Below the pieces are notes generated by a model. It was not told the DNA's origin and ran no database searches. It saw only the letters and a program-made list of their open reading frames with translations. Positions 1 through 53,099 of a stretch of 63,974 bases of DNA are shown in pieces. Both the position numbers and the translations under genes were made by a program. The stretch is from positions 1 to 63,974 of the IMG/VR virus record IMGVR_UViG_3300029319_000033, one strand, 5' to 3'. The number at the start of each line of letters is the position of its first letter. The stretch's first letter is position 1. The stretch comes from a virus. Taxonomy: Duplodnaviria > Caudoviricetes.

Positions 1-101
1 AACTTAGCTTCTCTATTTTTTCTCCTAGTCTCAGAGGCTTTTCTATAACCTTCTTTTCTTCTAGCATCTTTAGCAGTAGTTTTAATCAATTCGTGTTCGT
101 G
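1..101. repeat. Terminal direct repeat (assembly overlap of a circular or permuted genome), left copy
   Basis: 1-101 matches 63874-63974 at 100/101 positions; the only difference is G99 vs A63972. Confidence 0.97.
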
Positions 102-3100: not shown

Positions 3101-6100
3101 TTCTAATTTGATTATATTGTTGTAGTATTTTTAGAATTTTAATAGTTACAGCGTCAGATACCTTCCCTTTTTCTCTTAATTTTTGATATTCTCCTTCTTT
3201 TCCTTCTAAAAGTTCTTGAATTTTTTTTCTAGGATCTTTTTCTTTTTTAACTTTTTTAGTAACTCTTTTTGTAACTTCTAATACTTTATTTAATATATTT
3301 ATTCCATCCCTTTCTTTTAATGTCTGGAATTCTTCATCATTTAAATCAAATTGAATGCCCGGAGCTGTTTCTTTTATTGGGAGAGCAAAATTAACATTAT
3401 TAACATCTCTTTCTATTTCTACGCCCATCTGAGCAATAATACCCTCAGAGACAACTTCATCACTAGCATATTTAGATAAATCAGAATCAGTTAAAACTTT
3501 TGTATAAGCATCAAAAGCTAAAGCAGTACCTATAGAATTAGCTAAAGAATTTTTTCTTTTACCAGAAGCATCTTCAAAAAACTCCAAAAATTGTTTTTCT
3601 GTAGGTGTTTTCTTTTTATATAAATTAGGTGATTGAGTTTCTGTTTTTGCTTTAATAGCACCAATATCTTTTGCTGCTCTAGCTTCTAATGGTGTTAATT
3701 GTTTCTTTATTAGCTCAGTAAATATTGGAGTTTTACTTTTTCTATCAAGAGCAACAAGATCTCTAATAGGTAATTTTTCTACTATATTTACTCTATTTGA
3801 TTTTAAAAAATTAACAAAATTTTCTTTAGCTTTTTTACCTCCAGAAATACCACCACTCATTAGTTTTTTAATATCGACAGAAAATTGAGTTTCAAAGTTT
3901 TTTTGAAGTTTTTTCCAAACACTAGGATTTATTTGACCAGTTGTTTTATTATAATAATTCATAAAATTATCTTCAAAATCTTTAACAACCGAATCAAGTA
4001 TCTTTTTGTAAAGACCAGTTTTTTTGTCGATACCTATACTCTCTCTAAATAATGGCTTTTGTTGTTTAGGTTTTTCCTCTGCAACAACTTCCTCTTCTGC
4101 TACATCAACTCTTTCAGTTAACTCATCTTCAAACTTATCTCTTGTAGCAGCCTCACCTTTTTTATAAACATTTTTTATTTTATTGTCTAGCTGACTATTT
4201 ATCCAACCAGATAAACTATTATTTTTTTCTGGATTAAAATTTCTTATGTGAGGTATTAATTCTTCTGTTGTTGCAGATACAAAATCTTCTTCAGAAAACC
4301 CCGGTTGTCTAAATTTAACTGGAGGTATTTTACTTTTTATTAAACCCTGTAAGTCTTGGTTTGTAAAAATATCACCCAATACTGCATCCCCTTTACCAGC
4401 ATCCCACTCTTGTTTTGTAAGTTTATAGTTTCCATCAATATTTTTTTCACCAACTAAACCATCTATTTTTTCTTGTTTAGATACAACTTCTCTAGAAAAA
4501 TTAATTTGATTTTGAACCTTATTTAGTTGTGATTGAGAGAATGGTTTCTTTTGTTTAAGGAAACTAGATAAGTCTTCTGTAAACTCACCTTTTTCTATAC
4601 TTTTATTATACTCTTTCATGAAGTTATACACTCCCTGACCACTATCAAAAGATATTTTTTTAAAACCTATTGATCTAAGTATTGGTGTAAGTACGTCTCC
4701 TAACTTTGTAAAAATATTTTCTTCAAACTCTATTAAAGATGTACCATCTTCATTTTTAATATTTAAAGCATCAGAAAAATTTGTTAGGTACTCTGTGTAA
4801 TATTGACTAGATCTATTACCTTTAGAATCCACAGAAATATCATAATTTCTTTTTTTCATTAATGTATCAACGATATTCCTTTGTCTTTGAGAAAGCTTTG
4901 ATTGGAATTTTTCTACTAAAATTTTTTGTTTAGCAGCATTCCCAGCATATCTAAAAAGAATACCATGCAATACTTCATGAGAACCCACTGTGTTTTGCAA
5001 ATCAGCAGCCACAGATTTATTAACATAAACTACATTATTTGGTGCATCGTAAAAACCACCAGCGTTTTTTATGTCTGATCTTTCTTGTTTTGAAAGTTTT
5101 ATTTTTTGTTCTTTTGGTAAGGTTTTATTTAATTTATCTAAATCAGCTAATAACTCATCTGCAGTATCAAAAGCCCTAACTTGAGAACCAGACTGTTTAA
5201 TAAATTCAATATCTCTTCTTACTCTTCTTTCTCTAGAAGCCTTTTTAATTGCTGCTCTTTTAGATTTATTATCTTTTACAGCCTTTATTCTTCTGTCAAT
5301 ATCTTTATACTTATCTGTTATTTCTTTTATTTCAGATTTAACTTCTGCTAATTTATTTTTTGAAGATACTGTTTTTTTATTTTCAAGTTTTTTAACTTCT
5401 TTTTCTAATTCAAAAAATCTATCCCTATCTGTCTTATCAATTATCCTATCATCTATCTCTGATTTTATTTCAATATCAGATTGAAGTTCAGATACTCTAG
5501 AGTATAAATCATTATCATTTTTAATTTCAAAGTCTATACTCGCTTTTTCAACATCAGTAATTTTATCAGATTCTAATATTTTTATAATTTCACCTCTAGA
5601 AGCTAATCCACCATTTACTTTATATCTACCTGCTTTAGTGTTTAAAGCACTAAAACCACCCACTACTGCAGTTTTTGGAGCACCTCCTAAACCTGCAATA
5701 CCTTCTATTATTATTTCTTTTGTATCAAGTCCTCTACCTTCTATCGCCTGTGCTCCTGCTTCACCCAAAGATCCCCCCACTCCTTCAACACCAAAAGCGG
5801 CAGCTCCTTTTGCAGCTTTTACACCTATTCTTCCAGTGGCACTAGTTACACCTCTAGTTGCTCTAGCAATAGAGGATATGGCTTTACCACCAACTAAGGT
5901 TGCTGCACCTTCGATAACACCTATAGTTGATCCTGCTGCTATTGACTTCATTTGCACACTTTCAAAAAGATCTTCATCATTTAAAAATTCTTCTATAGTT
6001 TCTGGAGTGACTTCCTTACCGGCATCTCTAATTGCAGCCTGCATATTTTGAGAAAACCTGTTTACAGATTCTGAATAAGCATTAGCTGCAGCAAATCCTC

Positions 6101-6770
6101 CTGAAAGTGCTCCTCCTGCAACAGTCACTGGAGCAAAAATACCTCCTGCGAATCCAGCAGCAGCACCAACACCGGCTCCTCCTGTTGCCGCTGCAAGAGT
6201 TTCAATATTAGATAAACTAGCCACACTTTGAGCCATAACTCCAAGAAATCCATCAGTACCTGTCTCCATTGTAGCTTTGTATGTTGCTTGAATTGCATTA
6301 TCACCTTTTTCTATGTATTTATCATAGGCTTGATTCCACTCTTCCATAGCCTCTATTGGGGCAGCATTATTTATTTTTTGAATAGCTTCAAATGCATTTT
6401 GTATATCTTCTTTAGTAGACTCACCTCCAGACCTCATTATTTGACTAAACTCATCTGTAGTTTCAGCCATTGTTAATCCAACCTTACCTCCTTGTGTGAT
6501 AGCATTAAAAGAGTCAGTAAATTCTGTAAATAAATTAAAACCTTCTTCTTTAGACTTTGATGGTTCAGGTTTTTTTACTTGTTTTTGTGTTTCAGCTATT
6601 TGTAAATCAATAGCTTTCTTCCAAGAAAAAGAATCATCTACAATATTTTTTTCTTGATCTTCGATTTCTTTTTCTTCAATCTCTTGTTCCTGACTGTCTT
6701 GTTCGTAAATTTTTCTTGCTTCAGCTATGGCATTTAACCATGAAGAAGTTTCATCATTTCCATTTGACAT
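1..6770 (-). CDS. Giant putative virion ejection polyprotein, 2287 aa; continues across the join to the stop at 63780. Zincin HExxH, sigma2-like and PD-(D/E)XK modules
   Basis: ATG at 6770 (MSNGNDETSSW...). Hand translation stays open to the window edge and is in frame with the 63780-63962 ORF through the terminal repeat. Motifs: GFYD..HEVLH, NFNPEK..SLSGWI, RPDI..GVEVK. Lies after two other ejection-like genes. Confidence 0.85.
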   Translation of the reverse strand, partial: MSNGNDETSSWLNAIAEARKIYEQDSQEQEIEEKEIEDQEKNIVDDSFSWKKAIDLQIAETQKQVKKPEPSKSKEEGFNLFTEFTDSFNAITQGGKVGLTMAETTDEFSQIMRSGGESTKEDIQNAFEAIQKINNAAPIEAMEEWNQAYDKYIEKGDNAIQATYKATMETGTDGFLGVMAQSVASLSNIETLAAATGGAGVGAAAGFAGGIFAPVTVAGGALSGGFAAANAYSESVNRFSQNMQAAIRDAGKEVTPETIEEFLNDEDLFESVQMKSIAAGSTIGVIEGAATLVGGKAISSIARATRGVTSATGRIGVKAAKGAAAFGVEGVGGSLGEAGAQAIEGRGLDTKEIIIEGIAGLGGAPKTAVVGGFSALNTKAGRYKVNGGLASRGEIIKILESDKITDVEKASIDFEIKNDNDLYSRVSELQSDIEIKSEIDDRIIDKTDRDRFFELEKEVKKLENKKTVSSKNKLAEVKSEIKEITDKYKDIDRRIKAVKDNKSKRAAIKKASRERRVRRDIEFIKQSGSQVRAFDTADELLADLDKLNKTLPKEQKIKLSKQERSDIKNAGGFYDAPNNVVYVNKSVAADLQNTVGSHEVLHGILFRYAGNAAKQKILVEKFQSKLSQRQRNIVDTLMKKRNYDISVDSKGNRSSQYYTEYLTNFSDALNIKNEDGTSLIEFEENIFTKLGDVLTPILRSIGFKKISFDSGQGVYNFMKEYNKSIEKGEFTEDLSSFLKQKKPFSQSQLNKVQNQINFSREVVSKQEKIDGLVGEKNIDGNYKLTKQEWDAGKGDAVLGDIFTNQDLQGLIKSKIPPVKFRQPGFSEEDFVSATTEELIPHIRNFNPEKNNSLSGWINSQLDNKIKNVYKKGEAATRDKFEDELTERVDVAEEEVVAEEKPKQQKPLFRESIGIDKKTGLYKKILDSVVKDFEDNFMNYYNKTTGQINPSVWKKLQKNFETQFSVDIKKLMSGGISGGKKAKENFVNFLKSNRVNIVEKLPIRDLVALDRKSKTPIFTELIKKQLTPLEARAAKDIGAIKAKTETQSPNLYKKKTPTEKQFLEFFEDASGKRKNSLANSIGTALAFDAYTKVLTDSDLSKYASDEVVSEGIIAQMGVEIERDVNNVNFALPIKETAPGIQFDLNDEEFQTLKERDGINILNKVLEVTKRVTKKVKKEKDPRKKIQELLEGKEGEYQKLREKGKVSDAVTIKILKILQQYNQIRNERVGGVIQEITVFNLIRIDNAKDGKITLLKGTAMNDDSRPDIQIHYKGHVYQEKDRKTIDELNKKLPEGKEEIKVGDPIIVGVEVKKDFGADFGSSVLSVDEDFVNNKGKGKITFTNKKLNFEFLEAVLRNVLPAQLNKFFDFLDKQEIALGRNPVKRSTIKEKGPDGKAFKQRISDKTKEAWMDRVIKDFKIGGTFNSNDINLGKIAKYYREKGNSYLEVANSGLFYLGDDDKGNIFHAPLLINQKNLDVKVVVTAKFDAIKDSNDIKTGESTFRIRGELRIDPKAGKPIPVSKSKPSGKKLSITDGKSIDDNIKYYNKKNVNYSKNINEEFNKILEESQGVEATKRYSRRSATREGARKGRYKFFVPPSADNFMGLMYSFLGKGKVGERHKDFFEYNLMSPYKRGISAMDSQRQRITDEYKGIKKKHFKYIDQLKLESKLTGEHVPNTNFNKDAAVRVYLWNKQGVKNSDLDLTQKEVDTLVEFVKSDKQLLAFADDLGTMKSFDGKYPEPQEFWEGSTIVSDLSYSIDNARSEYLNEFIENSNEIFSEENLNKIEATYGPKFREALEGSLNSMKSGVLRRPLKKGSVEQKWYDWLNNSTATVMFFNVRSAILQTISSVNYLNWSDNNPVQAARAFANQKQFWKDFTFLFNSDKLRQRRAGTKINIAEAEISAAVQGKDGVNQTRSVIKTLLNKGFFFTQIADSFAIALGGASMYRNRVNSNIKKGMTVQEAEKAAFEDFDQITEETQQSSDPAEISQQQRSHFGRILLAFANTPMQYARLTKKAYLDLVNNRGDRKTNLSKLAYYAVVQNILFTGMQTALFATLGLGGDDEDDEKKQEKTKKLLKRQIDFATNGIVDSFLRGGLGYTGAVVAGLKNAILELYKQKQSDSIFAKDIARIENDLLSISPPIGTFFGKLYSGYKTSEIEKDVIEAKGFKFDSPIYEIGTKGVSAFTNIPADRALLTIRNITAATKENYETWERVLLTLGWSTWDLGLENHEHELIKTTAKDARRKEGYRKASETRRKNREAK

Positions 6771-20968: not shown

Positions 20969-20991
20969 AATATAATATAATATAAGTTAAT

Positions 20992-40299: not shown

Positions 40300-40557
40300 T
40301 TATTCAACAAGAACTACATCTTGTGATTTAATAATTTTATAAAGGGTGTCTTCATAGCTGATACCATGTCCTGCATGCTTGTCATAGTATACTATGTCTT
40401 TATCTTTGACACCCTCGACCTTACTGCCGCAGCTGATAACCCTTGCTCTAATGTAACGATTATCTAGGTCTGTCTTTTCTGTGAAAATAAGTCCAGCAAT
40501 CTTTTTCTGTTCTTCTTTGATATCACTTACTATCAAATAAAAATTAATTGCCTTCAT
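40300..40557 (-). CDS. groES: Co-chaperonin GroES (cpn10), 85 aa
   Basis: GLIF..ARVISCGSKVEGVKDKDIVYYDKHAG..IIKSQDVV; overlaps the groEL stop. Confidence 0.85.
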   Translation of the reverse strand: MKAINFYLIVSDIKEEQKKIAGLIFTEKTDLDNRYIRARVISCGSKVEGVKDKDIVYYDKHAGHGISYEDTLYKIIKSQDVVLVE

Positions 40558-42583: not shown

Positions 42584-42607
42584 GGTTTTTAAATTTACAT
42601 GGTTAAA

Positions 42608-42621
42608 CCGCAATATTGCGG
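42608..42621. promoter_or_regulatory. 14-bp perfect palindrome CCGCAATATTGCGG
   Basis: GC-rich palindrome in an AT-rich leader upstream of the groEL operon. Confidence 0.4.
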
Positions 42622-42747
42622 GTATCTTTAGGTTTTTTACCTTATTTTTTCTTATATAAACACTTTTTTATGGTGTAAGCTACCACTGTTAGTGATATTA
42701 ACACTAAATTAATTAAAACTATAAAAAAAGTAGCCTCATTATCCACT

Positions 42748-43002
42748 TTATTTGTAGTATTTATGCTGATAACTACTTTTACCCTCTTTTTTTGTTCCTT
42801 CGCCCTCGTTTCCTCTGTTAGATCTAACAGAAACAAACTTTCCTCGCTTATGATCAAAGTCTTTACCTGCAGCATCACTAGGATTTGCCCTAGCCTCACG
42901 TTGAGCATGTGCTTTTTTAGCTCTTCTTTCAGGAGATTTAGCAAAAGCCAAGTCTCTAGCAGCCTTATCTCTACGTGCTTGTGCAGATAGTCGTTGTTTC
43001 AT
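42748..43002 (-). CDS. Basic protein with degenerate HNH-like motif, first late gene, 84 aa
   Basis: GKDFDHK..SVRSNRGN. Confidence 0.55.
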   Translation of the reverse strand: MKQRLSAQARRDKAARDLAFAKSPERRAKKAHAQREARANPSDAAGKDFDHKRGKFVSVRSNRGNEGEGTKKEGKSSYQHKYYK

Positions 43003-43010
43003 ATTAATAC

Positions 43011-43036
43011 TATTACATGTAAAAAATATTTTTTAA
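43011..43036 (-). promoter_or_regulatory. Putative late promoter TTAAAAAA-N12-GTAATA
   Basis: Directly upstream of the first minus-strand gene; same spacing as the two other copies. Confidence 0.55.
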
Positions 43037-43039
43037 AAT

Positions 43040-43090
43040 AGTGTAACAATAGGGTGTTATTCTTTATATCTTATACCCTAAAGTTACACT
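43040..43090. promoter_or_regulatory. 51-bp imperfect palindromic operator/origin element, copy A
   Basis: AGTGTAAC..TAGGGT / ACCCTA..GTTACACT arms; reverse complement is 43/51 identical to 52429-52479. Confidence 0.75.
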
Positions 43091-43285
43091 TTTTGTGTAA
43101 TGTTAGATATGTGGGGATTTTGGGTTGCAAATACTGTGCCAACTTTTGTTGCAAAACAAAAACCAAATTTTTTTCACCCAGTCCCCCACCTTTTTTATTA
43201 AAATTTTCGCAATTTTTTAGTTTTTTTATGGGATATATCACAATATTTTTACCTTTTTTTTAACATTTTTTTAATACTATCTGAC

Positions 43286-43375
43286 TGTGTATTTGCCTAT
43301 GCGATTATGCGGTTTAAGCGTTGGGGTGTGGGGGGGCGTGTATAGCATTTGCGTAATCGGGTAAGCGAATATGCA
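43286..43375 (+). ncRNA. Candidate structured RNA or ssDNA hairpin
   Basis: 27-position stem with 18 Watson-Crick and 7 G.U pairs around a G-rich loop, in non-coding DNA. Confidence 0.45.
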
Positions 43376-43409
43376 ACTCCCCAAACTCTGTTAGTATATT
43401 CGTGTAGCC

Positions 43410-43447
43410 AACTCACCGGTTAAATAATTTTTTGTATAGATAATATA
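43410..43447 (+). promoter_or_regulatory. Early promoter motif, copy 1
   Basis: AACTCACCNNTTAAATAATTT-N7-AGATAATATA; 29/38 positions invariant across three copies. Confidence 0.75.
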
Positions 43448-43494
43448 GGTGTAACAAATAAAAAAAATAAATAAATTTTAAAACTAAACTAACT

Positions 43495-43532
43495 AACTCA
43501 CCCATTAAATAATTTTATAATCAGATAATATA
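43495..43532 (+). promoter_or_regulatory. Early promoter motif, copy 2
   Basis: Same motif, 15 nt upstream of ATG 43548. Confidence 0.75.
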
Positions 43533-43547
43533 TATAAATAAAAAGAT

Positions 43548-43676
43548 ATGGAAAACTTAAGAGAATTATTTGAAAGCATGAACCCAAACTCAATCTTAGC
43601 TATGGAAAAAGCATGTGAAATAATAATTAAAAAAAGACAAGCAAAGCATAAGATACAGGATAAGACCCCTAACTAA
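43548..43676 (+). CDS. Early micro-protein, 42 aa (not in ORF track)
   Basis: MENLRELFESMNPNS...; N-terminus shared with 45026-45208. Confidence 0.55.
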   Translation: MENLRELFESMNPNSILAMEKACEIIIKKRQAKHKIQDKTPN

Positions 43677-43708
43677 TTTTAAACAACAAAACAAAACGTA
43701 CACTTTTA

Positions 43709-43746
43709 AACTCACCTATTAAATAATTTATAATAAAGATAATATA
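43709..43746 (+). promoter_or_regulatory. Early promoter motif, copy 3
   Basis: Same motif, 21 nt upstream of ATG 43768. Confidence 0.75.
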
Positions 43747-43767
43747 ATTAAACAAACAGATAATAAA

Positions 43768-44007
43768 ATGAAAAGATTCGACAGACATACCAACACATTA
43801 CAAAGAGACGGTGACGATATCATATCATATCGCACAAGGGTTGCAACCATCATAGGCGATGAACTCCACGTTCATGGCAAGTATTCACCGACCACATCGA
43901 GACATATCAACTATGTTGCAGATGAATTGAACTTAACTAAGGTTAAATCTAGCGAATACACCGAGTCACCTAATTTTTACAAACTTGATAACTGGAAACA
44001 AATATGA
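43768..44007 (+). CDS. Early hypothetical protein, 79 aa
   Basis: ISYRTRVA..YSPTTSRHIN; A-rich leader. Confidence 0.65.
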   Translation: MKRFDRHTNTLQRDGDDIISYRTRVATIIGDELHVHGKYSPTTSRHINYVADELNLTKVKSSEYTESPNFYKLDNWKQI

Positions 44008-44174
44008 TATATATACACGAAGAGAATATCCCAATAAATGTAAAAAAATCGAAGTATATGAATGAGCAAGAATATATCGAAGAAGTATTATTATGCAACT
44101 ACCCTCACCTATCGATACAAGAAATCCAAGAGATGGATGAAGATGAGAAAAGAATGCTAATGGGGTGGGACTAA
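44004..44174 (+). CDS. Early hypothetical protein, 56 aa
   Basis: ATGA-coupled to the upstream gene; hand translated. Confidence 0.45.
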   Translation: MIYIHEENIPINVKKSKYMNEQEYIEEVLLCNYPHLSIQEIQEMDEDEKRMLMGWD

Positions 44175-44203
44175 ATAAAACAATAACAACTAAATAAACA
44201 AAC

Positions 44204-44527
44204 ATGAAAACAAGAACATACATAACAGAATTTGAAGACAATATGGCATGGGGCAAAGCCCCCTTCTATAAGAACCTCGCGAAAGGTGAAACAATGATGA
44301 TGAACAACACACCAATATTTAAAGAAGAATATAATCTAATGATAAGTAAAAGAGACTTCGGTTTGTTTGCGATGGGATTAAAACCGCATAGATATTGGAG
44401 TTTTAACGAGACTAAAAAATACTATGGTCTCAAAGGTAACAAAACAAAAGTAGCTGAAGATATCAAACAACTTTGTGAGGATTGGAAAGAATTTAAAAAG
44501 AAACATGTATCTTACTCGGAAGGGTAA
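44204..44527 (+). CDS. Early hypothetical protein, 107 aa
   Basis: Clean ORF with A-rich leader. Confidence 0.65.
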   Translation: MKTRTYITEFEDNMAWGKAPFYKNLAKGETMMMNNTPIFKEEYNLMISKRDFGLFAMGLKPHRYWSFNETKKYYGLKGNKTKVAEDIKQLCEDWKEFKKKHVSYSEG

Positions 44528-44553
44528 GATACTACAAACAAAACGACAAAATT

Positions 44554-44676
44554 ATGAAAAAAGTAAGATGTAATAATTGTATGAAAATATATACAGAAGA
44601 TACAGAAAACTATGAATATATTTATAAATGTATTAAGTGTAATACAGAAGAATATTTAATGGATATTAACAACTAA
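44554..44676 (+). CDS. Zinc-ribbon micro-protein, 40 aa
   Basis: CNNC..CIKC; hand translated. Confidence 0.55.
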   Translation: MKKVRCNNCMKIYTEDTENYEYIYKCIKCNTEEYLMDINN

Positions 44677-44686
44677 ACAAATAAAC

Positions 44687-44875
44687 ATGGAAACAATGAC
44701 AATTAGAGAACACGCAAAAAGATTCTGTTACGTTGTAATTAAGTGGCAAATCAATGGAAGAGAATGGACTACTCATGGACAATTTACTAGCAGAGATAAT
44801 GCTGAAAAATTTATTAAGGAAGAAAATATAAGTCAACTATCGCCTAACGTAACTTATGAAATAGTAGATATATGA
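44687..44875 (+). CDS. Early hypothetical protein, 62 aa
   Basis: ORF with A-rich leader. Confidence 0.6.
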   Translation: METMTIREHAKRFCYVVIKWQINGREWTTHGQFTSRDNAEKFIKEENISQLSPNVTYEIVDI

Positions 44876-44988
44876 GATATAGAGAAATAGATGACATGTA
44901 TTATGTTGGGGACATGGTAGATGTAGACGGAAACGGATGGGTAGATAAAGAAACTTTTAAACTTATCTGTTTGGAATTGATTAAATAA
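44872..44988 (+). CDS. Micro-protein with EF-hand-like loop, 38 aa
   Basis: DVDGNGWVDKETF; ATGA overlap with the upstream gene. Confidence 0.45.
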   Translation: MRYREIDDMYYVGDMVDVDGNGWVDKETFKLICLELIK

Positions 44989-45025
44989 ATTATTATATTA
45001 CATAACACCAAAAACAAATACCATT

Positions 45026-45208
45026 ATGAAAGACCTTAAAGAACTATTCACTAGCATGAATCCGACTCCCTCGGATATCTTCCCAGAAGATACAAGGTGC
45101 TATACATGTAACAACTTTATCACAGATCTTGACCGACAAATTGCAAACGGTAACACAGATCAATGCACAGAATGTTTTATTGAAGAACTAATTGAATCAA
45201 AGAGATGA
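45026..45208 (+). CDS. Zinc-finger protein, 60 aa
   Basis: CYTC..CTEC. Confidence 0.6.
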   Translation: MKDLKELFTSMNPTPSDIFPEDTRCYTCNNFITDLDRQIANGNTDQCTECFIEELIESKR

Positions 45209-45310
45209 AAAGAACAACAGTAAGAGAAATATGTCAATACTACGGTCAGCACTATGACAATGTAAAACACATGAAAGAATTTATTAAACAACTTAAAAAA
45301 CGATACAAAG

Positions 45311-45595
45311 ATGAACAGTAAATATAACAAACTAATTGACCTATTAAAGTACCATGATTGGACATACGAATATTCAGATGACAACCGAGCGTATGAGTGG
45401 GGGTACAATAACAAAATAGAAATTGATAGGGAACTTGAAAGACTAGGTAGGGATGATCAAAGCCTCAAGATATACGAGGATGCTAAACCCGACTATCTTA
45501 AGACTAGTGAGTTCATTGATAGTGGTAGTCAACACCTACCAATGTCAAGTGAGGATAATGATTGGGATAATAAATTTGAATGGAAAATTAAATAA
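45311..45595 (+). CDS. Early hypothetical protein, 94 aa
   Basis: HDWTYEYSDDNRAY motif. Confidence 0.65.
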   Translation: MNSKYNKLIDLLKYHDWTYEYSDDNRAYEWGYNNKIEIDRELERLGRDDQSLKIYEDAKPDYLKTSEFIDSGSQHLPMSSEDNDWDNKFEWKIK

Positions 45596-45601
45596 TAAAC
45601 T

Positions 45602-45766
45602 ATGAATTGGCTTTGGGATGATCAAAAGAAAAAATCAAATATGGTTATAACTTACGAAGGTAAAATTGTACAATTTATAACTCCAATACATTGTTATGAA
45701 GTAATTGGAGTACAAACCAAATCTGAAGATAAACAAAATGCACAAATAAAATTTATATATGAATAA
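45602..45766 (+). CDS. Early micro-protein, 54 aa, paralog of 47335-47505
   Basis: KKSNMVIT..YEVIGVQT..IKF. Confidence 0.6.
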   Translation: MNWLWDDQKKKSNMVITYEGKIVQFITPIHCYEVIGVQTKSEDKQNAQIKFIYE

Positions 45767-46004
45767 TAAAACTATGACAATATACGATATAAAAAGAATG
45801 AGTGAGGACAAGGCTCCTTACTTCTTCGAGCGAAAGACATTAAAGTTTTTCAACCAAACATTAAAAGACTTTTCAGTCAAGAAACTAAATGAAGAAAGGT
45901 ACTATATTTCTGCACCCATGAGGGACTCGAGAGGTCACCAAGTGGGGGTAACTAAAAGAGTATTTGATGTAAGGACTAGAGAACTATTAAACACAGAACT
46001 ATGA
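45759..46004 (+). CDS. Early hypothetical protein, 81 aa
   Basis: YFFERKTLKFFNQ motif. Confidence 0.6.
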   Translation: MNNKTMTIYDIKRMSEDKAPYFFERKTLKFFNQTLKDFSVKKLNEERYYISAPMRDSRGHQVGVTKRVFDVRTRELLNTEL

Positions 46005-46297
46005 TAGATAAGATATATGTAATAGCGACTACTTGGCGTGGTATTATTCAAGCAGATATGGAACATTTCTATACATCTGATGAAGCATTGGAAAGAATAA
46101 GTGAAATAGCAATTGAAAATGGTTTCACAAAACCAGACCCTGAAGATGACCCCAAAAGATATTTGTATGATTATAACGATTATTTAATTGAAAATGATAT
46201 TTGTCCTAAAATTGATGTATCATTACACACAATTAATTTAGGAGAGGAGTTATCCATGGATAGAACTTACTACCAACAAAGTTACAAAAGTATATGA
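46001..46297 (+). CDS. Hypothetical protein, 98 aa
   Basis: Translationally coupled ORF. Confidence 0.55.
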   Translation: MIDKIYVIATTWRGIIQADMEHFYTSDEALERISEIAIENGFTKPDPEDDPKRYLYDYNDYLIENDICPKIDVSLHTINLGEELSMDRTYYQQSYKSI

Positions 46298-46527
46298 GTG
46301 ATATTAGAGAAATATTATGGGACAAGCAAACCCAAATCAAAGACATAAAAAGTCAAATAAAATACAACAATGAACATAACAAACGACTGATGAAAAAGTG
46401 GGAGGAACATTACAATAGCATGACTAACTATATGATAGGTAATGAAGAGTATGTTCTAAGCAAGATAGATTTTAGTTATATTCTTGAAATCATGAAAAAT
46501 AATAGACCATGTCCAAAGATAGATTAG
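46294..46527 (+). CDS. Hypothetical protein, 77 aa
   Basis: Translationally coupled ORF. Confidence 0.5.
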   Translation: MSDIREILWDKQTQIKDIKSQIKYNNEHNKRLMKKWEEHYNSMTNYMIGNEEYVLSKIDFSYILEIMKNNRPCPKID

Positions 46528-46653
46528 TAGTAAATAAGATAGGGTCATTAGTTCATGTAATCTTTGAGGATAACTTTCCAAGATATAGACTACTTGTAAA
46601 AGGAGTAAAGACTAACAAAAGTCTAGTAAACAAAGAAATAAGATGGTGGTACT

Positions 46654-47046
46654 ATGGGTAAGTCAATAACTATAATATGTGTAGGTCTTTTATTGATCTA
46701 CTACATCATCTCAAGTAGAGATACAAGAGTAACAAGAGTTATAGATGGTGATACATTTATAACAAACAAAGGGGACAGGGTGCGACTCATTGGAGTTGAT
46801 GCACCCGAACTCCCAAGTTTAAGAGGTATTGAATCTAAGATGTATCTACACCAATTAATAGATAACAAGGTGGTGATACTTGAAAGAGATGGGATATCAG
46901 ACAACAAGGACAAGTATGGTAGATTACTCAGGTATGTGTATTTAAACAAAAAAGATGTTAACTTACAGATGTTAAAGAGTGGATATGCAAAACCATACTT
47001 ATATTTTAATTTTGAAAAACTAAACCAATATAAATACTATGATTAA
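46654..47046 (+). CDS. Thermonuclease (SNase family) with N-terminal membrane/signal segment, 130 aa
   Basis: RVIDGDT, VRLIGVDAPE, DKYGRLLRYV, GYA. Confidence 0.92.
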   Translation: MGKSITIICVGLLLIYYIISSRDTRVTRVIDGDTFITNKGDRVRLIGVDAPELPSLRGIESKMYLHQLIDNKVVILERDGISDNKDKYGRLLRYVYLNKKDVNLQMLKSGYAKPYLYFNFEKLNQYKYYD

Positions 47047-47317
47047 AAATTTACTAATCGGGGCGATGCTATACACGTCCCCGAGCGATTCAGACAAAAT
47101 AACAAATTACGAATATAAAATAAATGAAATGATATTAACAATCGAAGACTTGCATGAGTGGATCCGCAATGACGTTGACAACGGATCTTTAGATCCAAGA
47201 CTTGGAGAGATCTACCAAGAGAACTACGAGCGACTGATCAAAGATCTCAACGAACTCAAAGTAGTGCAGTACCCTTCGGACTTCATTCCATTGAGAGCAA
47301 AAGCATTAAGTAAATAA
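47039..47317 (+). CDS. Hypothetical protein, 92 aa
   Basis: Overlaps the SNase stop. Confidence 0.55.
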   Translation: MIKNLLIGAMLYTSPSDSDKITNYEYKINEMILTIEDLHEWIRNDVDNGSLDPRLGEIYQENYERLIKDLNELKVVQYPSDFIPLRAKALSK

Positions 47318-47529
47318 ACTAAAACCAAAAACCAATGAAACATAAAAAATCAAATATTTTTATAACTAATAGGGGTGTACTTGGGACATTTCTAAACGAT
47401 GGGTACTACTATGAAGTAGTAGGTGTGCAAACATACTACCCATACCCAAAACCATCTAAGCATCAAAACAAGTACAACTCAGAAATTAAATTTAAATATA
47501 GATAACTAAAACCAAAAACCAATGAAACA
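47317..47529 (+). repeat. 26-bp exact direct repeat (47317-47342 and 47504-47529) flanking a small gene
   Basis: AACTAAAACCAAAAACCAATGAAACA twice, each copy containing a start codon. Confidence 0.9.
47335..47505 (+). CDS. Micro-protein, 56 aa, paralog of 45602-45766
   Basis: KKSNIFIT..YEVVGVQT..IKF. Confidence 0.6.
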   Translation: MKHKKSNIFITNRGVLGTFLNDGYYYEVVGVQTYYPYPKPSKHQNKYNSEIKFKYR

Positions 47530-47725
47530 ATTAAACAAAGTAACTAAGAAAGAAGTCATGGCTGCAATACAGTATTTGCATACTGAGGGATTTATAGATA
47601 ATATGAGAAGTGATGAAGCGCACTACACTAAAATTTTACTTAGGAAAGTAGCTAATGACTTCAATGTAAGATTAGTGGTAAATGTTCCTCATAAAAAACA
47701 TAAAGGATTAACAATCCCCTTGTAA
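47522..47725 (+). CDS. Hypothetical protein, 67 aa
   Basis: Starts inside the repeated leader. Confidence 0.6.
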   Translation: MKQLNKVTKKEVMAAIQYLHTEGFIDNMRSDEAHYTKILLRKVANDFNVRLVVNVPHKKHKGLTIPL

Positions 47726-48312
47726 TGGAAATAAGTATAGATAGTTTATTAAAGAGTTGCCACAAGTGTGGAGACCTTTTAAGTGGCACTAAATCATTAA
47801 CCAATGGAGTAACCAATACTTTTAGAGAATTGTCTTTACAAGAAATTTTTGAAACAATGCATGGTTATTGTGGAGATACCGATTGGGACTATAGTGGAGA
47901 AATCATAAGACTAAAGACTAAATTTAAATTAGAAGGTATAGATGATCGTAGACCTTTCTGTTATAGATGTCTTAAAGAAGAAGATATTCACGAAGGTCCT
48001 CTTCATGAAGATCCTGAGGAGTATTTACTCTTTATTGAAAACGAAATTAAGGAAATTGAGACATTTAAATTATGTGATATAGATCCAATGAATATTAAAA
48101 AGTTGAGTGATTTAAAAGATATCAGGGATGAATTAAAAGTCATTGTATTTCCTGAAGTTCCATCTGTTACTGAGTATGGTATGTATTTAAGAGAAAAACA
48201 TGATGAAGTAAAGTATCAAGAGTTTTTATGTAAAGAAAAAGATGATGAACATAAATACAGAATGGAAGAAATTGAAAAGCTAATAGAAAATGAGGCTACT
48301 AAAAAATGTTAG
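47725..48312 (+). CDS. Zinc-binding hypothetical protein, 195 aa
   Basis: CHKC..CYRC. Confidence 0.6.
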   Translation: MEISIDSLLKSCHKCGDLLSGTKSLTNGVTNTFRELSLQEIFETMHGYCGDTDWDYSGEIIRLKTKFKLEGIDDRRPFCYRCLKEEDIHEGPLHEDPEEYLLFIENEIKEIETFKLCDIDPMNIKKLSDLKDIRDELKVIVFPEVPSVTEYGMYLREKHDEVKYQEFLCKEKDDEHKYRMEEIEKLIENEATKKC

Positions 48313-48378
48313 AAATCATAATAACACTAATATTATTTGCAGTTATATTTTTTGGAATATTTAAAATTATGAATGTAG

Positions 48379-48585
48379 ATGACTGACAGAAAAGCACCTA
48401 AATACACTGATTTATCAGATCTCCAAGAATCAACAAAAAGAGGGATACTGATTGATCATGGATATAGTTTTGTATTCTCCACCGACATGAGAGATTGGAT
48501 AATGCAAAAGAAAAGAAGACAAGAATTAGAATCACGAGAACGAATAAGAAATGGAAAAGAAAGAAGACCTTATAAAAAAAGATAA
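48379..48585 (+). CDS. Hypothetical protein, 68 aa
   Basis: ORF within the operon. Confidence 0.5.
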   Translation: MTDRKAPKYTDLSDLQESTKRGILIDHGYSFVFSTDMRDWIMQKKRRQELESRERIRNGKERRPYKKR

Positions 48586-48838
48586 ACAGAAATTTGAAAA
48601 TAACAAATGGGGTTTGTACGCTGAAATATTTACAGAACTCAGACACAAGAAGGATGAGGTCAATATGATTAAAGATCTACTTGAGAGACTATCTGAGAAC
48701 AAAGCAATAACAACCACAGATATTAACTTGATTAATAAAGTTATGAATGGTAGTTTAGCTTTAAGGTTGCAGAGGATCTCAACAAGTGATAGATATTTGA
48801 AAGCAATGAGTAAAAAACGTAAACAAAAACAACTATGA
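48551..48838 (+). CDS. Hypothetical protein, 95 aa
   Basis: ORF within the operon. Confidence 0.55.
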   Translation: MEKKEDLIKKDKQKFENNKWGLYAEIFTELRHKKDEVNMIKDLLERLSENKAITTTDINLINKVMNGSLALRLQRISTSDRYLKAMSKKRKQKQL

Positions 48839-49107
48839 GTGATTTTGTAATTTCTAGCGATGACTTAATCAATAAAGAAGACCCTGACATAAGGGATGCA
48901 ATAGCATGGTTTAGATTGCATGACGTGGAAGCATACACAGATGAGTATGGTGGATTCTACGTAGTAATATCTAGGGTGTTGCATGTGCAACTAAATGATG
49001 ATGACATACACGTATTGATATCTCCATCTGAAGTATCTTACAGAGCAGATTTATGGAGGGAGTTTAAAGGTAAGGATAAAAAATCTAGAAAAAATGGGAA
49101 AGTTTAA
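48835..49107 (+). CDS. Hypothetical protein, 90 aa
   Basis: ATGA-coupled ORF. Confidence 0.55.
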   Translation: MSDFVISSDDLINKEDPDIRDAIAWFRLHDVEAYTDEYGGFYVVISRVLHVQLNDDDIHVLISPSEVSYRADLWREFKGKDKKSRKNGKV

Positions 49108-49627
49108 AGATGATTTGAACATAGGTCAGAAGTATGAGGATATCATACTTAAGAGGGCAAAGAAAACTTATCCTCTAGCCTACATACAAAAGGGTAAGTT
49201 TAAGTATTGGGATATCAATATCCCAGAAGTAAATATATCTCTGGAGGTAAAGTATGATGAAAGGAATCAAACATCAGGCAACATACTTATAGAGTTTGAG
49301 TGTAATGATAAACCTTCAGGTATTACTACAAGTAAAGCAGACTTTTGGATCTTGTTTGATAAACCTGATGGAGACCCTATATGGTTTTTAACTGAAGGTA
49401 TTCGAAGGTGTATTTATGAAAATAGTTTTAAAACAAAAATAATTAAAGGGGATAAGGTAGGAGATCCGTATGATAAAAAAGTATACCTAATTAAAAAAGA
49501 GATATTATACAAATATAAAATGCCTAAGAATGCATGGATTGAAAAGGTAAAGCAGAACAACGGTACAACACCTTATGCTTCTTACGGATCTAAATCACCA
49601 AATCAAATACATGAGTTTTATGACTAA
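49094..49627 (+). CDS. PD-(D/E)XK family nuclease, 177 aa
   Basis: GQKYE..WDI..LEVKYD..SGNILIE..PSGITTSKADFW. Confidence 0.8.
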   Translation: MGKFKDDLNIGQKYEDIILKRAKKTYPLAYIQKGKFKYWDINIPEVNISLEVKYDERNQTSGNILIEFECNDKPSGITTSKADFWILFDKPDGDPIWFLTEGIRRCIYENSFKTKIIKGDKVGDPYDKKVYLIKKEILYKYKMPKNAWIEKVKQNNGTTPYASYGSKSPNQIHEFYD

Positions 49628-49791
49628 TAGAAACGTAATATTCTTGATCATACTAAATAAAGCACTTGACTTATCTTCACGTCTATTAAACAAGATCTTA
49701 AGGAGGAGATGGTTTAAGTTAGCTAACAAATTAGTTATTCTTAGGAAAAAGTATGTAATAAGTAATATGTTAAAACTAAACAAAAAAGAAA

Positions 49792-49929
49792 ATGATAAAA
49801 CCTGAATGGACTTTTATGCTTGATAAACAATTTATTGCATGGCAATGTGTGTGTGGTGGGCTAAACTCTATGTCAAGAGAAAAATGTGGTAAGTGTGGTA
49901 AAATTAAAGAAGTAAAAAAATATTATTAA
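49792..49929 (+). CDS. RanBP2-like zinc-finger micro-protein, 45 aa
   Basis: WQCVCGGLNSMSREKCGKCG; hand translated. Confidence 0.55.
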   Translation: MIKPEWTFMLDKQFIAWQCVCGGLNSMSREKCGKCGKIKEVKKYY

Positions 49930-49930
49930 T

Positions 49931-50104
49931 ATGGAAACACAATTATTTATATACGGAATATGTTTGATAGGTGTATTTAGTATGCTAAGTTTGCAATCTT
50001 ATAAAGAATGGTTAGACAAAAAAGATAACATAGTCAGCTTCATAATTTACATGATTATAAATATTATTACTATCGTAGCTTTCATAGCACAGTTTAGTAA
50101 TTAA
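49931..50104 (+). CDS. Small two-helix membrane protein, 57 aa
   Basis: Two hydrophobic stretches; hand translated. Confidence 0.45.
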   Translation: METQLFIYGICLIGVFSMLSLQSYKEWLDKKDNIVSFIIYMIINIITIVAFIAQFSN

Positions 50105-52435: not shown

Positions 52436-52479
52436 CATTAGGGTATAAGATATATAGAATAAGAGGCTAATGTTACATA
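52429..52479. promoter_or_regulatory. 51-bp operator/origin element, copy B, overlapping the start codon of the HTH gene
   Basis: Perfect arms TGTAACATTAG-N25-CTAATGTTACA; ATG 52470 lies inside the right arm. Confidence 0.8.
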
Positions 52480-53099
52480 AAACTTTAAATAGAAATTTAG
52501 ATTATTTGCATCGAAAAAGGTTTAAATATAAAAAAGAACCTACTACAGATGTTCCAACTAAAAAGTATTATTGGGGGTCTTATTATAAAAATGGTACATA
52601 TCAGGATTATAATTTATTTTATGGTAATGCTAAGATAACCACATTTAAAGCATTAGTATGGCATATTGAAGTTTTAAGGTATATAAATTTAGATTGGGAT
52701 AAAGATGACTTTAGGAAAATAATTTACTTTATAGCTGAAATTAAAAATGGTTTTGTTACCTTTGAAATTAACACAAGTTATTTAGATAGATATATAGACA
52801 ATGCGTTGTCTAATGATTTTTCTTACAAACCTATAAACAGAAAAAAAATAATAGTATTTAAAGATGGAACCGGTCTGTCTAGAAAAGAAAAATTAAAAAT
52901 AGTTGGTGAGGTAGTAGGTAGATCTAAGATTGTTGATAATGAAATCATTTATGAATGCATGTTAGAAATCAACAAAGACAAAAGAAAGATAACCATATCT
53001 AATATAGCTAAAATATTAAATTGTTCTAGAATGTCCATATACAGGAATATGGATACTGAGTTGAAGGTTGAGAGGGATATGCTTAATGAAAAAGTATAA
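52470..53099 (+). CDS. HTH DNA-binding protein (regulator or replication initiator), 209 aa
   Basis: C-terminal ITISNIAKILNCSRMSIYRNM helix-turn-helix. Confidence 0.7.
   Translation: MLHKTLNRNLDYLHRKRFKYKKEPTTDVPTKKYYWGSYYKNGTYQDYNLFYGNAKITTFKALVWHIEVLRYINLDWDKDDFRKIIYFIAEIKNGFVTFEINTSYLDRYIDNALSNDFSYKPINRKKIIVFKDGTGLSRKEKLKIVGEVVGRSKIVDNEIIYECMLEINKDKRKITISNIAKILNCSRMSIYRNMDTELKVERDMLNEKV

Follow-up and report, generated by a model that had tools for sequence, protein, structure and literature searches.

Putative early promoters of non-host type at the head of the + strand gene block in a clade of marine flavobacterial phages

Introduction

How transcription starts in phages of Bacteroidota is poorly known, since the primary sigma factor of their hosts reads an unusual promoter, for which PMC6847099 gives the consensus −33 TTTG / −7 TAnnTTTG, transcripts starting 4-5 nt past the end of the −7 box. 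The contig analysed here, 63,974 bases that constitute the whole virus record and are termed the window, carries three near-identical repeats where its + strand gene block begins. This locus raises the question of whether the repeats are promoters and, if so, which enzyme and which specificity factor would read them when the phage DNA enters the cell. A first-pass annotation had described them as early promoters of non-host type that need a phage factor present at entry, and had proposed a sigma-region-2-like module in an ejected giant protein as that factor.

Three repeated sites at the head of the + strand block

The arrangement AACTCACC-NN-TTAAATAATTT-N7-AGATAATATA occurs in exactly three copies, at 43410, 43495 and 43709, all on the + strand, and 29 of 38 positions (8 + 11 + 10 in the alignment of the copies) are invariant. 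The repetition noticed by the first-pass annotation was confirmed by a scan of the window with AACTCACCNNTTAAATAATTT, allowing up to three mismatches, which returned three matches, every one exact, against 0.13 expected by chance, while 0 of 100 dinucleotide shuffles of the window reached three matches. No further copy is present in the record. The sites lie at the head of a + strand block extending from 43548 to 60934, as had also been claimed, and the features of this region are as follows.

43410..43447, + strand: P1, putative early-class promoter copy 1, with CTCACC as upstream block, TTAAATAATTT as middle block and a −10-like GATAAT at 43439-43444
43495..43532, + strand: P2, putative early-class promoter copy 2, ending 15 nt 5' of the ATG that opens the first + strand ORF (43548-43676, 42 aa)
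43709..43746, + strand: P3, putative early-class promoter copy 3, ending 21 nt 5' of the ATG of the second ORF (43768-44007, 79 aa)
43548..50104, + strand: tightly packed small early ORFs, putatively driven by P1-P3, with no motif copy within or beyond the block

No ORF separates copy 1 from copy 2, and P1, like the first promoters in relatives, has GTGTAACAAATAA after it. In the mechanism proposed below, these three sites would be the only early-class promoters of the phage and would start rightward transcription of the early block once the DNA enters. A sigma-54-type site at 43126-43141 is unconserved in relatives and was for that reason left out of the model.

A putative clade-wide early promoter class

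The three sites are a local variant of a tripartite motif, tTTACAAAcTAAATACGA-N8-gGATAATATA, which is conserved in more than 80 related contigs and spans ~40 bp in three blocks, TTACA-like, TAAATA(CGA/ATT) and GATAAT. Relatives carry 5-11 early-class sites per genome. In 11 complete genomes a position matrix, built without five of them (G006-G010) and without any bacterial-genome matches, located 76 sites on the early strand against one on the opposite strand. Only 2 of the 76 fall within an ORF of 60 aa or more on their own strand, nearly all being intergenic and just 5' of small early ORFs, and an ATG lies within 45 nt for 59 of 75 sites. When the matrix was iterated over 80 related loci plus the window, 214 early-strand sites were counted against 2 on the opposite strand; the site numbers are partly circular, since the matrix was built from the loci that were then counted, a circularity that does not extend to strand bias or gene positions. 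This orientation, together with the intergenic position and the conservation, supports the annotation of the sites as promoters.

The block GATAAT is invariant in all three window copies and clade-wide; it has A as its second and T as its sixth base and resembles a sigma-70-type −10 element from which transcription would putatively start ~7 nt downstream. The ATG stands exactly 3 nt past the 38-mer in 8 of 75 sites of the complete genomes, a spacing that places the A of the ATG 7 nt past GATAAT, and the larger locus set displays a peak of 27 sites with the ATG 0-4 nt past the 38-mer.

An earlier description of the motif was not found in a literature search of limited coverage. The clade is large, with 315 GroEL relatives in the viral contig collection, and the motif lends itself to marking early regions in genomes of this clade. 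A separate DNA-pattern scan of viral contigs with ACTCACCNNTTAAATAA retrieved 117 stretches, all judged to be chance matches; a single one of these loci (L075) had GATAATA nearby, within a 385-aa ORF of an AT-rich contig.

The sites differ from host primary-sigma promoters

TAnnTTTG is absent from both strands of 43000-43800, compared with 44 and 63 occurrences on the two strands of the whole window; this absence is not striking alone, as about one would be expected at the window density. The box is also missing at promoter positions in six related genomes, and a search for TTG-N17-23-TAnnTTTG close 5' of ORF starts in the intergenic DNA of G000-G005 found none, with scattered intragenic matches only. 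The closest local fit in relatives, TATATATG, departs from the box by a single mismatch, which falls on a near-invariant position. The consensus itself can be seen in the Cellulophaga phage phi14:2 and in MW202828, phi38:1 and elemoA. These results bear out the earlier view that the sites are of non-host type, and the host primary sigma would not be expected to read the early class.

Nor do the sites have a −35 hexamer 16-18 bp 5' of the −10 block. A TTTACA-like block (CTCACC in the window) is located 21 bp, and the TAAATA block 12 bp, 5' of GATAAT, and the 21-bp distance constitutes a non-standard sigma-70 geometry. A sigma-70 consensus scan of 42500-61500 returned 72 sites, where 92.8 are expected, and flagged copy 3 only, through a different hexamer pair. 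Non-host early motifs of other kinds are found in relatives that lack the free phage sigma described below: MW202828 has 14 copies of a palindrome before early genes and phi38:1 a repeated motif, ACACTATCAAAA, in the same position.

The free phage sigma and the late promoters

The + strand block encodes a free sigma factor, and a separate repeated motif precedes structural genes on the opposite strand.

53086-53844, + strand: free phage sigma with regions 2, 3.0 (RIPEH) and 4, its gene following P3 at a distance of 9.4 kb
52470..53099, + strand: 209-aa protein with a C-terminal helix-turn-helix, 37-52% identical in relatives, its gene overlapping the start of the sigma gene
20970..20985, 23847-23862 and 25355-25370, − strand: late-strand motif TTATATTATATTATAT, three exact copies, each directly before the ATG of a structural gene

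The free sigma is present in the window and in 14 of 15 relatives, the single miss coinciding with a contig break, and a tblastn search of the phage collection retrieved no relative of it. In all three sigma-less relatives inspected (MW202828, phi38:1, elemoA) TAnnTTTG boxes stand before late genes, whereas the sigma-bearing clade displays TTATATTATATTAT in their place at the homologous late positions. Because the presence of the free sigma goes with the new late-promoter type, the protein was assigned to the late genes, and TTATATTATATTATAT is a candidate for its target class. In each of the ten genomes where both could be placed, early-class sites precede the sigma gene on its own strand, so that the need for a phage factor at entry, before phage gene expression, as proposed in the annotation, is a reasonable deduction.

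We therefore favour, at a probability of roughly 40%, the reading that the early promoters serve the host core polymerase aimed by a phage-encoded factor present at entry, with the free sigma serving the late genes. As GATAAT is placed like the −10 element of the sigma-70 family, the enzyme is taken to be the host multisubunit RNA polymerase, which a phage-encoded specificity factor would direct to the sites. The free sigma gene would itself be transcribed from the early promoters; since the protein is assigned to late genes, the reader of the early class would be a different factor, already present at entry and thus delivered by the virion. The sequences show directly the motif with its strand bias, position, conservation and non-host character, and how the module and the free sigma are distributed; promoter activity, its timing, the enzyme and the virion delivery of the reader are elements that we infer. 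A search for RNA runs containing 42800-46800 returned none. Against this reading, the single sigma-like module of the virion is absent from 5 of 5 relatives with the same promoters.

An unlikely reading, yet the one that competes most seriously, is that the early class is read by the free sigma itself, perhaps together with the helix-turn-helix protein encoded next to it, with a trickle of host transcription or a packaged copy of the sigma starting a self-amplifying loop. The free sigma and the early class co-occur throughout the clade in the relatives counted above and in the window, and both are missing from MW202828, phi38:1 (first 50 kb) and phi14:2. GATAAT is a sigma-70-like −10 element, the protein has regions 2, 3.0 and 4, and an alignment reveals that the residues by which primary sigmas read position −12 are altered in it (Q to G, T to R), making a changed −12 base plausible. 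The rare chromosomal copies of the motif described below would then be infection-responsive promoters. The position of the sigma gene behind early-class promoters in 10 of 10 genomes, with no host-type promoter upstream, would however leave such a loop without a visible starter. In addition, this reading would not account for why it is precisely the sigma-bearing clade whose late promoters have departed from TAnnTTTG, and the sigma-less relatives too have non-host early motifs. Comparison by eye of motif variants with the sigma or helix-turn-helix alignments in 10 genomes revealed no clear pattern, the variants, from only two or three lineages, being too few for a test. A free sigma that reads the early class would account equally well for the clade-wide co-occurrence of the two.

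Chromosomal copies of the motif

A second alternative places the reader in the host, as an alternative sigma or an activator that would be at hand on entry without packaging, the phage mimicking a minor host promoter type. Eight full-length sites (at most one mismatch) were found on chromosomal contigs of up to 1.39 Mb in five metagenome-assembled Flavobacteriaceae genomes, where they precede operons for secreted lipocalin-like, trypsin-like, Ig-like and TerB proteins. Such copies are restricted to 1-2 sites per genome, however, and only 1 of 300 other sampled genomes of the candidate host family has a site at this threshold, yet a large phage clade keeps one consensus; a general host factor is unlikely to be the reader of the early class. 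In one genome (G017) the sites have excisionase-like and ParB-like genes as neighbours, and one operon protein contains a ~65-aa domain common to the first early proteins of the phages (E 3e-4 to 7e-9), which suggests phage-related islands over a core host regulon. A search of the five candidate host genomes with the window sigma as query found no homologue of it. Taken together, these data make a host-encoded reader improbable. The rare chromosomal copies point to candidate hosts; the host itself is a candidate only, deduced from relatives and from contigs of metagenome-assembled genomes.

The giant protein and its sigma-region-2-like module

The end of the virion block is occupied by a giant gene, in which the module proposed as reader is located.

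3..6770, − strand: giant protein, 2256 aa or longer, closing the virion block and crossing the contig junction
4101..4433, − strand: sigma-70 region-2-like module, residues ~780-890 of the giant protein, supported by Pfam, PDB profile, predicted fold and modelled docking

The N-terminal and central part of the giant protein varies among relatives, and the C-terminal ~700 aa alone are conserved. The N-terminal half of a 2878-aa protein is conserved as well. The protein resembles a polyvalent protein and is probably ejected; it displays a weak language-model likeness to clusters carrying LPD39 (28% of members) or LPD38 (88%), a weak Pfam peptidase match and an HExxH zincin-like part. Direct terminal repeats of contigs were considered as physical genome ends and rejected: the ends of the window overlap inside the giant gene, so that such repeats are assembly overlaps, silent on which end enters first.

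The module itself is real. Pfam Sigma70_r2 (PF04542) matches that of the window at 14.8-20.3 bits, under the 24-bit cut-off, and TIGR02937 at 24.5 bits against a cut-off of 42.9, while 15 of 24 module homologues match Sigma70_r2 at E ≤ 0.1 (best 2.5e-5) and any other family is matched by at most two. A module profile searched against the PDB gave three matches at E ≤ 1, all of them sigma factors (best 8b3z, 0.0032). The predicted model has a pLDDT of 84-94 across residues 1-95, with residues 104-127 disordered and the helices beyond matching nothing. Nearly all of the best 50 Foldseek rows against the PDB are sigma chains (top probability 0.90, E 0.21), none of these 50 reaching E ≤ 0.001; the fold matches include 7d7c, the T4 gp55 complex. 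Modelled docking onto the β' clamp helices of F. johnsoniae scored 0.83, the best control scoring 0.00; 116 of 157 solved complexes attain the mark of the module, compared with 2 of 215 mismatched pairs. As sigma region 2 and the clamp helices are a textbook pair, this pass may only reflect likeness to solved holoenzymes. The docking runs share at least 58% of contacts, with a partner pLDDT of at least 75 and an interface on β' 287-319. The module is thus predicted to adopt the helical fold of sigma domain 2 and to dock onto the clamp helices.

As the specificity factor for the three promoters, in contrast, the module is very improbable. Being a genuine relative of sigma domain 2, it has a precedent in T4 gp55, a domain-2-only sigma able to read a −10-only promoter. 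However, it is absent from all five of the complete genomes G001-G005 (module HMM, all six frames; best E 0.042, in an unrelated short frame), and Pfam/NCBIfam returned no sigma match on four giant orthologues. These five genomes carry 7-11 early-class sites each, so the module is not the clade-wide reader. The module-bearing genomes (G006-G010, L149, L151) display the standard early motif, and the −10 block, the expected target of domain 2, is invariant with or without the module. The covariation between promoter and module that had been suggested as a check is likewise missing, the promoters being present in 5 of 5 genomes with the module and 5 of 5 without it and no variant tracking it. In the giant protein, neither Sigma70_r4 nor Sigma70_r3 matched at E ≤ 10, and nothing resembling region 4 was found. 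The earlier interpretation therefore holds for the promoters, their non-host type, the existence of the module and, as a reasonable proposal, the entry factor, and fails for the module as reader. In the reading favoured here, the module may dock the giant protein onto the polymerase without specifying the early promoters.

A phage polymerase or a non-promoter role

That a cryptic virion-carried phage RNA polymerase reads the sites, as in N4 or crAss-like phages, is scarcely probable. The length and information content of the sites and their restriction to early genes would suit such an enzyme, as would the hairpin-capable palindromes before early genes in MW202828 and a layout like that of crAss-like phi14:2, the virion block ending in GroEL and giant proteins. 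Yet no polymerase family was recognised among 38 ORFs (PHROGs) or 11 proteins (Pfam), the two giants included, the DFDxD/DxDxD motif occurs in 0 of 13 large proteins, and neither giant protein is similar to gp65 or gp66 of phi14:2 (tblastn) or has relatives of solved structure in PDB sequence searches. The three copies form no stable DNA hairpin and have none in common, their folds ranging from −0.5 to −1.3 kcal/mol. A cognate phage RNA polymerase gene was thus not identified; a novel fold is possible.

Replication iterons, operators or packaging signals, of which iterons had been named as the alternative to promoters, deserve hardly any weight: three direct repeats do lie within 340 bp at a strand switch where the cumulative GC skew of the window turns, but that turn is merely the change of coding strand, and relatives have their sites scattered across 5-10 kb, each within tens of bases of an ATG, with 76 of 77 co-oriented with genes. 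Iterons would be expected to cluster at an origin independently of gene starts.

Comparison with known systems

Phage sigma-family proteins that redirect the host core polymerase to phage promoters include SPO1 gp28, phiEco32 gp36 and, for late promoters, T4 gp55; an extended −10 element can be read by a sigma consisting of domain 2 alone. These phages transcribe their early genes from ordinary host promoters and bring in the phage sigma at a later stage, unlike in the window, where the earliest promoters would already be of non-host type. Coliphage N4 has three early promoters at its genome end, read by a virion-injected giant RNA polymerase; they are DNA hairpins, with a short stem and a small loop just 5' of the start, recognised by a T7-like polymerase domain. 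The window resembles N4 in its few near-identical non-host early promoters, in a giant protein probably entering with the DNA and in the use of other machinery for later genes. It differs in that its sites lack a hairpin, no polymerase domain was found and relatives have 5-11 sites rather than three.

Promoters of the host polymerase have been mapped in phi14:2, where they read TTG-N20-TAnnTTTG, and the virion polymerase gp66 is known, while its early transcripts are described as having no common upstream motif (10.1101/2020.03.07.982082). Phage phi14:2 shares with the window its genome layout and, as far as the window sequence indicates, the transcription of early genes by machinery other than the host holoenzyme, and its host belongs to the same bacterial family as the hosts of cultured relatives of the phage studied here. 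The window differs in its very strong early motif and in that no polymerase is seen, so that this marine flavobacterial phage displays an early motif where, according to the same source, phi14:2 showed none (10.1101/2020.03.07.982082).

For polyvalent proteins injected with phage DNA, the jump-starting of transcription is a stated theme (Iyer et al. 2017, PMC5512222). Similar features are seen in the giant multidomain protein from the virion block: its modules are swappable and it has an HExxH zincin-like part. Its sigma-2-like module, however, is not among the domains listed in the main text of PMC5512222, in which the word "sigma" occurs 0 times.

A more elaborate scenario, distinctly doubtful as a whole, would join these elements. 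Infection would start without any host-type promoter; the ejected giant polyvalent protein would capture the host core RNA polymerase, in many members of the clade via the sigma-domain-2 module on the β' clamp helices, and a conserved virion-borne part would aim the polymerase at the ~40-bp promoters, with the free sigma later taking over the late genes and the chromosomal copies acting as infection-sensing promoters on mobile or defence islands. The large uncultured marine clade offers a sharply defined early promoter of ~40 bp, two candidate sigma-like players and a separate late type, and their presence in the same genomes makes the identity of the reader directly testable in vitro. If the elaborate scenario is true, the few exact early-promoter copies carried on Flavobacteriaceae chromosomes would fire only on the entry of such a phage.

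Three probable promoters at the head of the rightward gene block

A scan of the window with the 21-base upstream part of the motif returned three matches, all exact and all on the + strand, at 43410, 43495 and 43709 (chance expectation 0.13; three matches were reached in 0 of 100 shuffles). Together with the downstream AGATAATATA, the three copies agree at 29 of 38 positions, so that the near-identical sites described by the first-pass annotation at the head of the + strand block are confirmed. The first two start codons on the + strand follow the ends of copies 2 and 3 by 15 and 21 nt, and copy 1 is located 85 nt upstream of copy 2 with no intervening ORF. No further copies occur elsewhere in the genome, even at 9 mismatches, and the three copies form no stable DNA hairpin. 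The three sites are considered to be promoters with a probability of roughly 0.85, and they very probably belong to a class specific to this phage clade that the host primary sigma does not read.

The window comprises the entire virus contig of 63,974 bases, the ends of which (1-120 and 63860-63974) encode the same giant-protein peptide and thus overlap within the giant gene. The record is therefore a circularly closed or permuted assembly, and with the ends joined the giant protein is ~30 aa longer than the open frame shown.

Gene blocks and principal genes of the window
1-43,000, minus strand, virion block of structural genes
31158-33380, minus strand, terminase large subunit
28748-31165, minus strand, portal
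40544-42109, minus strand, GroEL
Within the minus-strand block, minus strand, GroES-like gene, tail-fibre-like proteins and a virion protein of 2878 aa
End of the minus-strand block, minus strand, giant protein of at least 2256 aa
43,548-60,934, plus strand, rightward gene block, starting with ~25 small ORFs
After the small ORFs, plus strand, TIGR03032/DUF4915 protein, 209-aa helix-turn-helix protein, sigma factor (53086-53844), exonuclease, primase-helicase, ribonucleotide reductase

No DNA polymerase gene was recognised among the scanned window ORFs of at least 150 aa. The TIGR03032/DUF4915 protein (51353-52435, +; E 1e-91 to 1e-96) adjoins the helix-turn-helix-sigma gene pair on its upstream side. 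A tRNA-Asp call of 89 bases with an unusual anticodon (atc), at 50190-50278 (+), is preceded by two short hairpins and separates the small-ORF block from the sigma-gene operon; the relatives have an early-class site, with a leader of 266-286 nt, upstream of the block leading to the sigma gene.

By terminase identity, the nearest deposited relative is the uncultured freshwater podophage MW202828 (62%), and lower values were obtained for the Flavobacterium 'elemo' phages (45%), Maribacter phage Panino (41%) and Cellulophaga phages including phi38:1 (39%; Pervagoviridae according to the taxonomy given in the record). The hosts of these relatives suggest that the window phage probably infects a member of Flavobacteriaceae. 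Contig L364 (63,985 bases), assigned to a Prochlorococcus single-cell assembly, contains an early-class site of the standard form plus a single ORF with similarity to the complete genome G010. It is probably a co-sorted phage of this clade, a reminder that host assignment is indirect.

Distribution and anatomy of the clade-wide motif

An exact-pattern scan of viral contigs gave chance matches only. Relatives were gathered through the GroEL gene, 1.3 kb from the sites (315 related stretches, 80 kept), and the family motif, tTTTTACAAAcTAAATACGA-N8-gGATAATATA, was derived by a mismatch-tolerant scan and then an iterated position matrix. Over the 80 GroEL-linked loci and the window, matrix matches number 214 on the early strand versus 2 on the other, numbers that are partly circular because the matrix was trained on the counted loci, although the strand bias and gene-relative position are not. 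Eleven complete genomes, five outside the training set, contain 76 early-strand sites versus 1 opposite, at 3-11 per genome; only 2 early-strand sites fall inside same-strand ORFs, and an ATG follows within 45 nt in 59 of 75. This strand bias and placement fit promoters and do not fit replication iterons, the alternative raised in the first-pass annotation, and a non-promoter role of any kind is scarcely credible.

The best-conserved bases are ACA, ACG 11 nt later and GATAATA 13 nt further on. An ATG stands exactly 3 nt past the 38-mer in 8 of 75 sites of the complete genomes, and in the larger locus set the ATG distance peaks at 0-4 nt (27 sites). The 3-nt spacing places the A of the ATG 7 nt after GATAAT, the usual gap between a -10 hexamer and the transcript start, which suggests that messages are leaderless at those sites and that GATAAT acts as a -10 element. 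Upstream of GATAAT lie a TTTACA-like block at 21 bp and a TAAATA block at 12 bp, neither of which corresponds to standard sigma-70 spacing. The window is the extreme case, with only the three head copies and a diverged first block, CTCACC replacing TTTACA and TAAATAATT replacing TAAATACGA; both forms coexist within one genome in its closest relatives (G001, L122-L124).

Contrast with host-type promoters

The Bacteroidota primary sigma is described as reading -33 TTTG and -7 TAnnTTTG elements, the -7 box having six bases that hardly vary (PMC6847099). The four host-polymerase promoters mapped in Cellulophaga phage phi14:2 (10.1101/2020.03.07.982082) read TTG-N20-TA(TA/CT/GT/TC)TTTG on the DNA, and TAnnTTTG boxes stand at late genes of MW202828, phi38:1 and elemoA. 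No TAnnTTTG is present in window 43000-43800, in agreement with the absence first noted at the sites, nor at promoter position on either strand of six genomes of the clade, which thus appears to have abandoned host-type promoters altogether.

An exact sigma-54-type -24/-12 consensus (TGGCAC-N5-TTGCA) was observed at 43126-43141 (-), in the divergent intergenic region, directed into the late block, with the first minus-strand ATG ~125 nt downstream of it. By chance, 0.01 such sites would be expected per window; the divergent regions of five complete relatives (G001-G005) have no conserved counterpart.

The free sigma factor and the late promoters

The free sigma displays regions 2, 3.0 (RIPEH) and 4; its closest likeness is to primary and group-3 sigmas. 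It is present in 14 of 15 complete relatives, the sole miss, G002, having a contig break at that place, and tblastn revealed no relatives in the phage collection, MW202828, the elemo phages and phi38:1 included. That it reads the early class is possible but unlikely: in all 10 genomes where both were located, early-class sites precede its own gene on the same strand, and no other promoter-like element was found upstream of it in the window. Barring packaged sigma or an overlooked weak host start, the early class must therefore fire before this sigma has been made.

In the sigma-bearing clade, TTATATTATATTAT immediately precedes the ATG of late genes; the window contains three exact copies, all on the late strand (chance expectation 0.10).

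Exact copies of TTATATTATATTATAT directly before structural-gene start codons
20970-20985, minus strand
23847-23862, minus strand
25355-25370, minus strand

One of these copies directly follows a terminator-like hairpin. The late motif is conserved at homologous places in G001-G005 and occupies places where three sigma-less relatives have TAnnTTTG; it probably represents the late promoter class of the phage sigma. Assigning the free sigma to this class would be simplest, and would leave the early class to something present at entry. The arrangement proposed is that a factor already present at entry would read the early promoters and the free sigma would serve the late genes. A phage factor of this kind had been called for from the outset, and the position of the sigma gene favours it; the reader of the early class is tentatively taken to be a virion-delivered phage factor other than the sigma-2-like module of the giant protein, the candidate originally named.

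A second late-strand motif, (T)ATATATGTAAT or ATGTAAyTATAAT, precedes several minus-strand genes in the window and relatives, and its ATGTAA string is also seen after the -10-like block in the first early promoters.

Window positions of the second late-strand motif
8990-9060, minus strand
20067-20130, minus strand
35227-35290, minus strand
43003-43060, minus strand

Chromosomal copies and a possible host factor

Scanning bacterial genomes, one for each species, for ACAAANTAAATACGA-N9-GATAATA identified 38 stretches versus ~1 by chance, an estimate based on 21 specified bases in a collection of 596 billion bases. Many of these, short contigs in assorted bins, some with 2-4 sites, look like mis-binned phage DNA; others are chromosomal contigs, as long as 1.39 Mb, from Flavobacteriaceae genomes. 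A host reader could account for the full-length copies in five metagenome-assembled Flavobacteriaceae genomes (8 sites at no more than 1 mismatch; contigs L367, L368, L369, L379, L385, L401-L407), which precede operons for secreted lipocalin-like, trypsin-like, Ig-like and TerB proteins. However, of 300 further genomes sampled from the family only 1 has such a site, there are just one or two per genome, those of one genome adjoin excisionase-like and ParB-like genes, and an operon protein shares a ~65-aa domain with the phages' first early proteins (E 3e-4 to 7e-9). Given the size of the phage clade, a factor conserved over its hosts would be expected to have a more widespread regulon; a host factor is thus improbable and the reader is taken as phage-encoded. 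The chromosomal copies are taken to be phage-related islands, which may be phage-responsive.

The sigma-2-like module of the giant protein

Residues 826-871 of the giant protein match Sigma70_r2 weakly, with E 0.025 when the entire protein is searched and 20.3 bits genome-wide (cut-off 24); TIGR02937 is matched at 24.5 bits (cut-off 42.9) and PDB entry 8b3z at E 0.15. The segment is common to 71 other giant proteins of 1434-3106 aa in a large protein collection. An alignment of 24 such segments gave a profile whose three PDB matches at E <= 1 are all sigma factors (best 0.0032); 15 of the 24 members match Sigma70_r2 individually, and any other family is matched by at most 2. The AlphaFold model is confident at residues 1-95 (pLDDT 84-94) with the helical pattern of domain 2, and sigma chains, including T4 gp55, fill nearly all of the best 50 Foldseek rows, none at E <= 0.001. 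A complex model with F. johnsoniae RpoC residues 220-360 scored 0.83 versus 0.00 for the best of three controls, a score that 116 of 157 solved complexes attain, as do 2 of 215 mismatched pairs; runs agree on at least 58% of contacts, partner pLDDT is at least 75, and the interface falls on beta' 287-319. Because sigma-2 on the clamp helices is a textbook complex, this modelled docking is read as likeness to solved structures, not as binding by this copy. No region 3 or region 4 was found in the giant protein. The module, as originally recognised, is thus a real domain-2 relative and not a whole sigma.

The giant protein is probably a polyvalent, ejected protein, as suggested by its position in the virion block, a HExxH zincin-like stretch, conservation among relatives confined to the C-terminal ~700 aa, and a language-model search placing it closest to clusters with LPD38 or LPD39 domains. 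As in polyvalent proteins, there is a HEVLH motif (aa 536-602, window 4965-5165, -), which weakly matches a putative metallopeptidase family; aa ~190-370 contain glycine/alanine-rich hydrophobic stretches. 'Sigma' has no occurrence in the main text of the polyvalent-protein paper (PMC5512222).

Five complete relatives, G001-G005, were taken from the GroEL list by length alone. Protein search revealed the module in none, tblastn matches to the giant protein were confined to its C-terminal part, four giant orthologues had no Pfam or NCBIfam sigma-domain match, and the best module HMM hit in all six frames was an unrelated 106-aa frame (E 0.042). All five nevertheless carry early-class sites, 7-11 each, of the same kind as in five complete relatives with the module (5-9 sites) and in the partial module-bearing contigs L149 and L151. 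Domain 2 would read the -10 block, here GATAAT, which never changes with or without the module. Variants of the first two blocks do not track module presence either. Judged from these genomes, the module is dispensable for the early promoter class, and it is very improbable that it is the reader of these promoters.

A cryptic phage polymerase, for example of novel fold, is barely plausible, since no polymerase family was matched by 38 ORFs against PHROGs or 11 proteins against Pfam (both giants included), 13 large proteins lack a DxDxD motif, and neither similarity to phi14:2 gp65 or gp66 nor PDB sequence relatives suggesting a polymerase were found.

Early motifs of the sigma-less relatives

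Sigma-less MW202828 displays its own repeated non-host motif before early genes, a perfect 16-bp palindrome, GTGTCGTTAACGACAC, in 14 copies, of which the majority lie 20-45 nt upstream of an early-gene start codon (L236 43745-50000, L237 1-5200), and its late genes have canonical TAtCTTTG boxes. The word 'promoter' does not occur in the phi38:1 transcriptome paper (PMC5335546), as far as its available text extends. Sigma-less phi38:1 likewise has its own motif, ACACTATCAAAA: at least five of its small early genes have it 20-25 nt upstream of the start codon (L238 23000-32000, -). These separate early motifs fit a family-wide habit of phage-directed early transcription.
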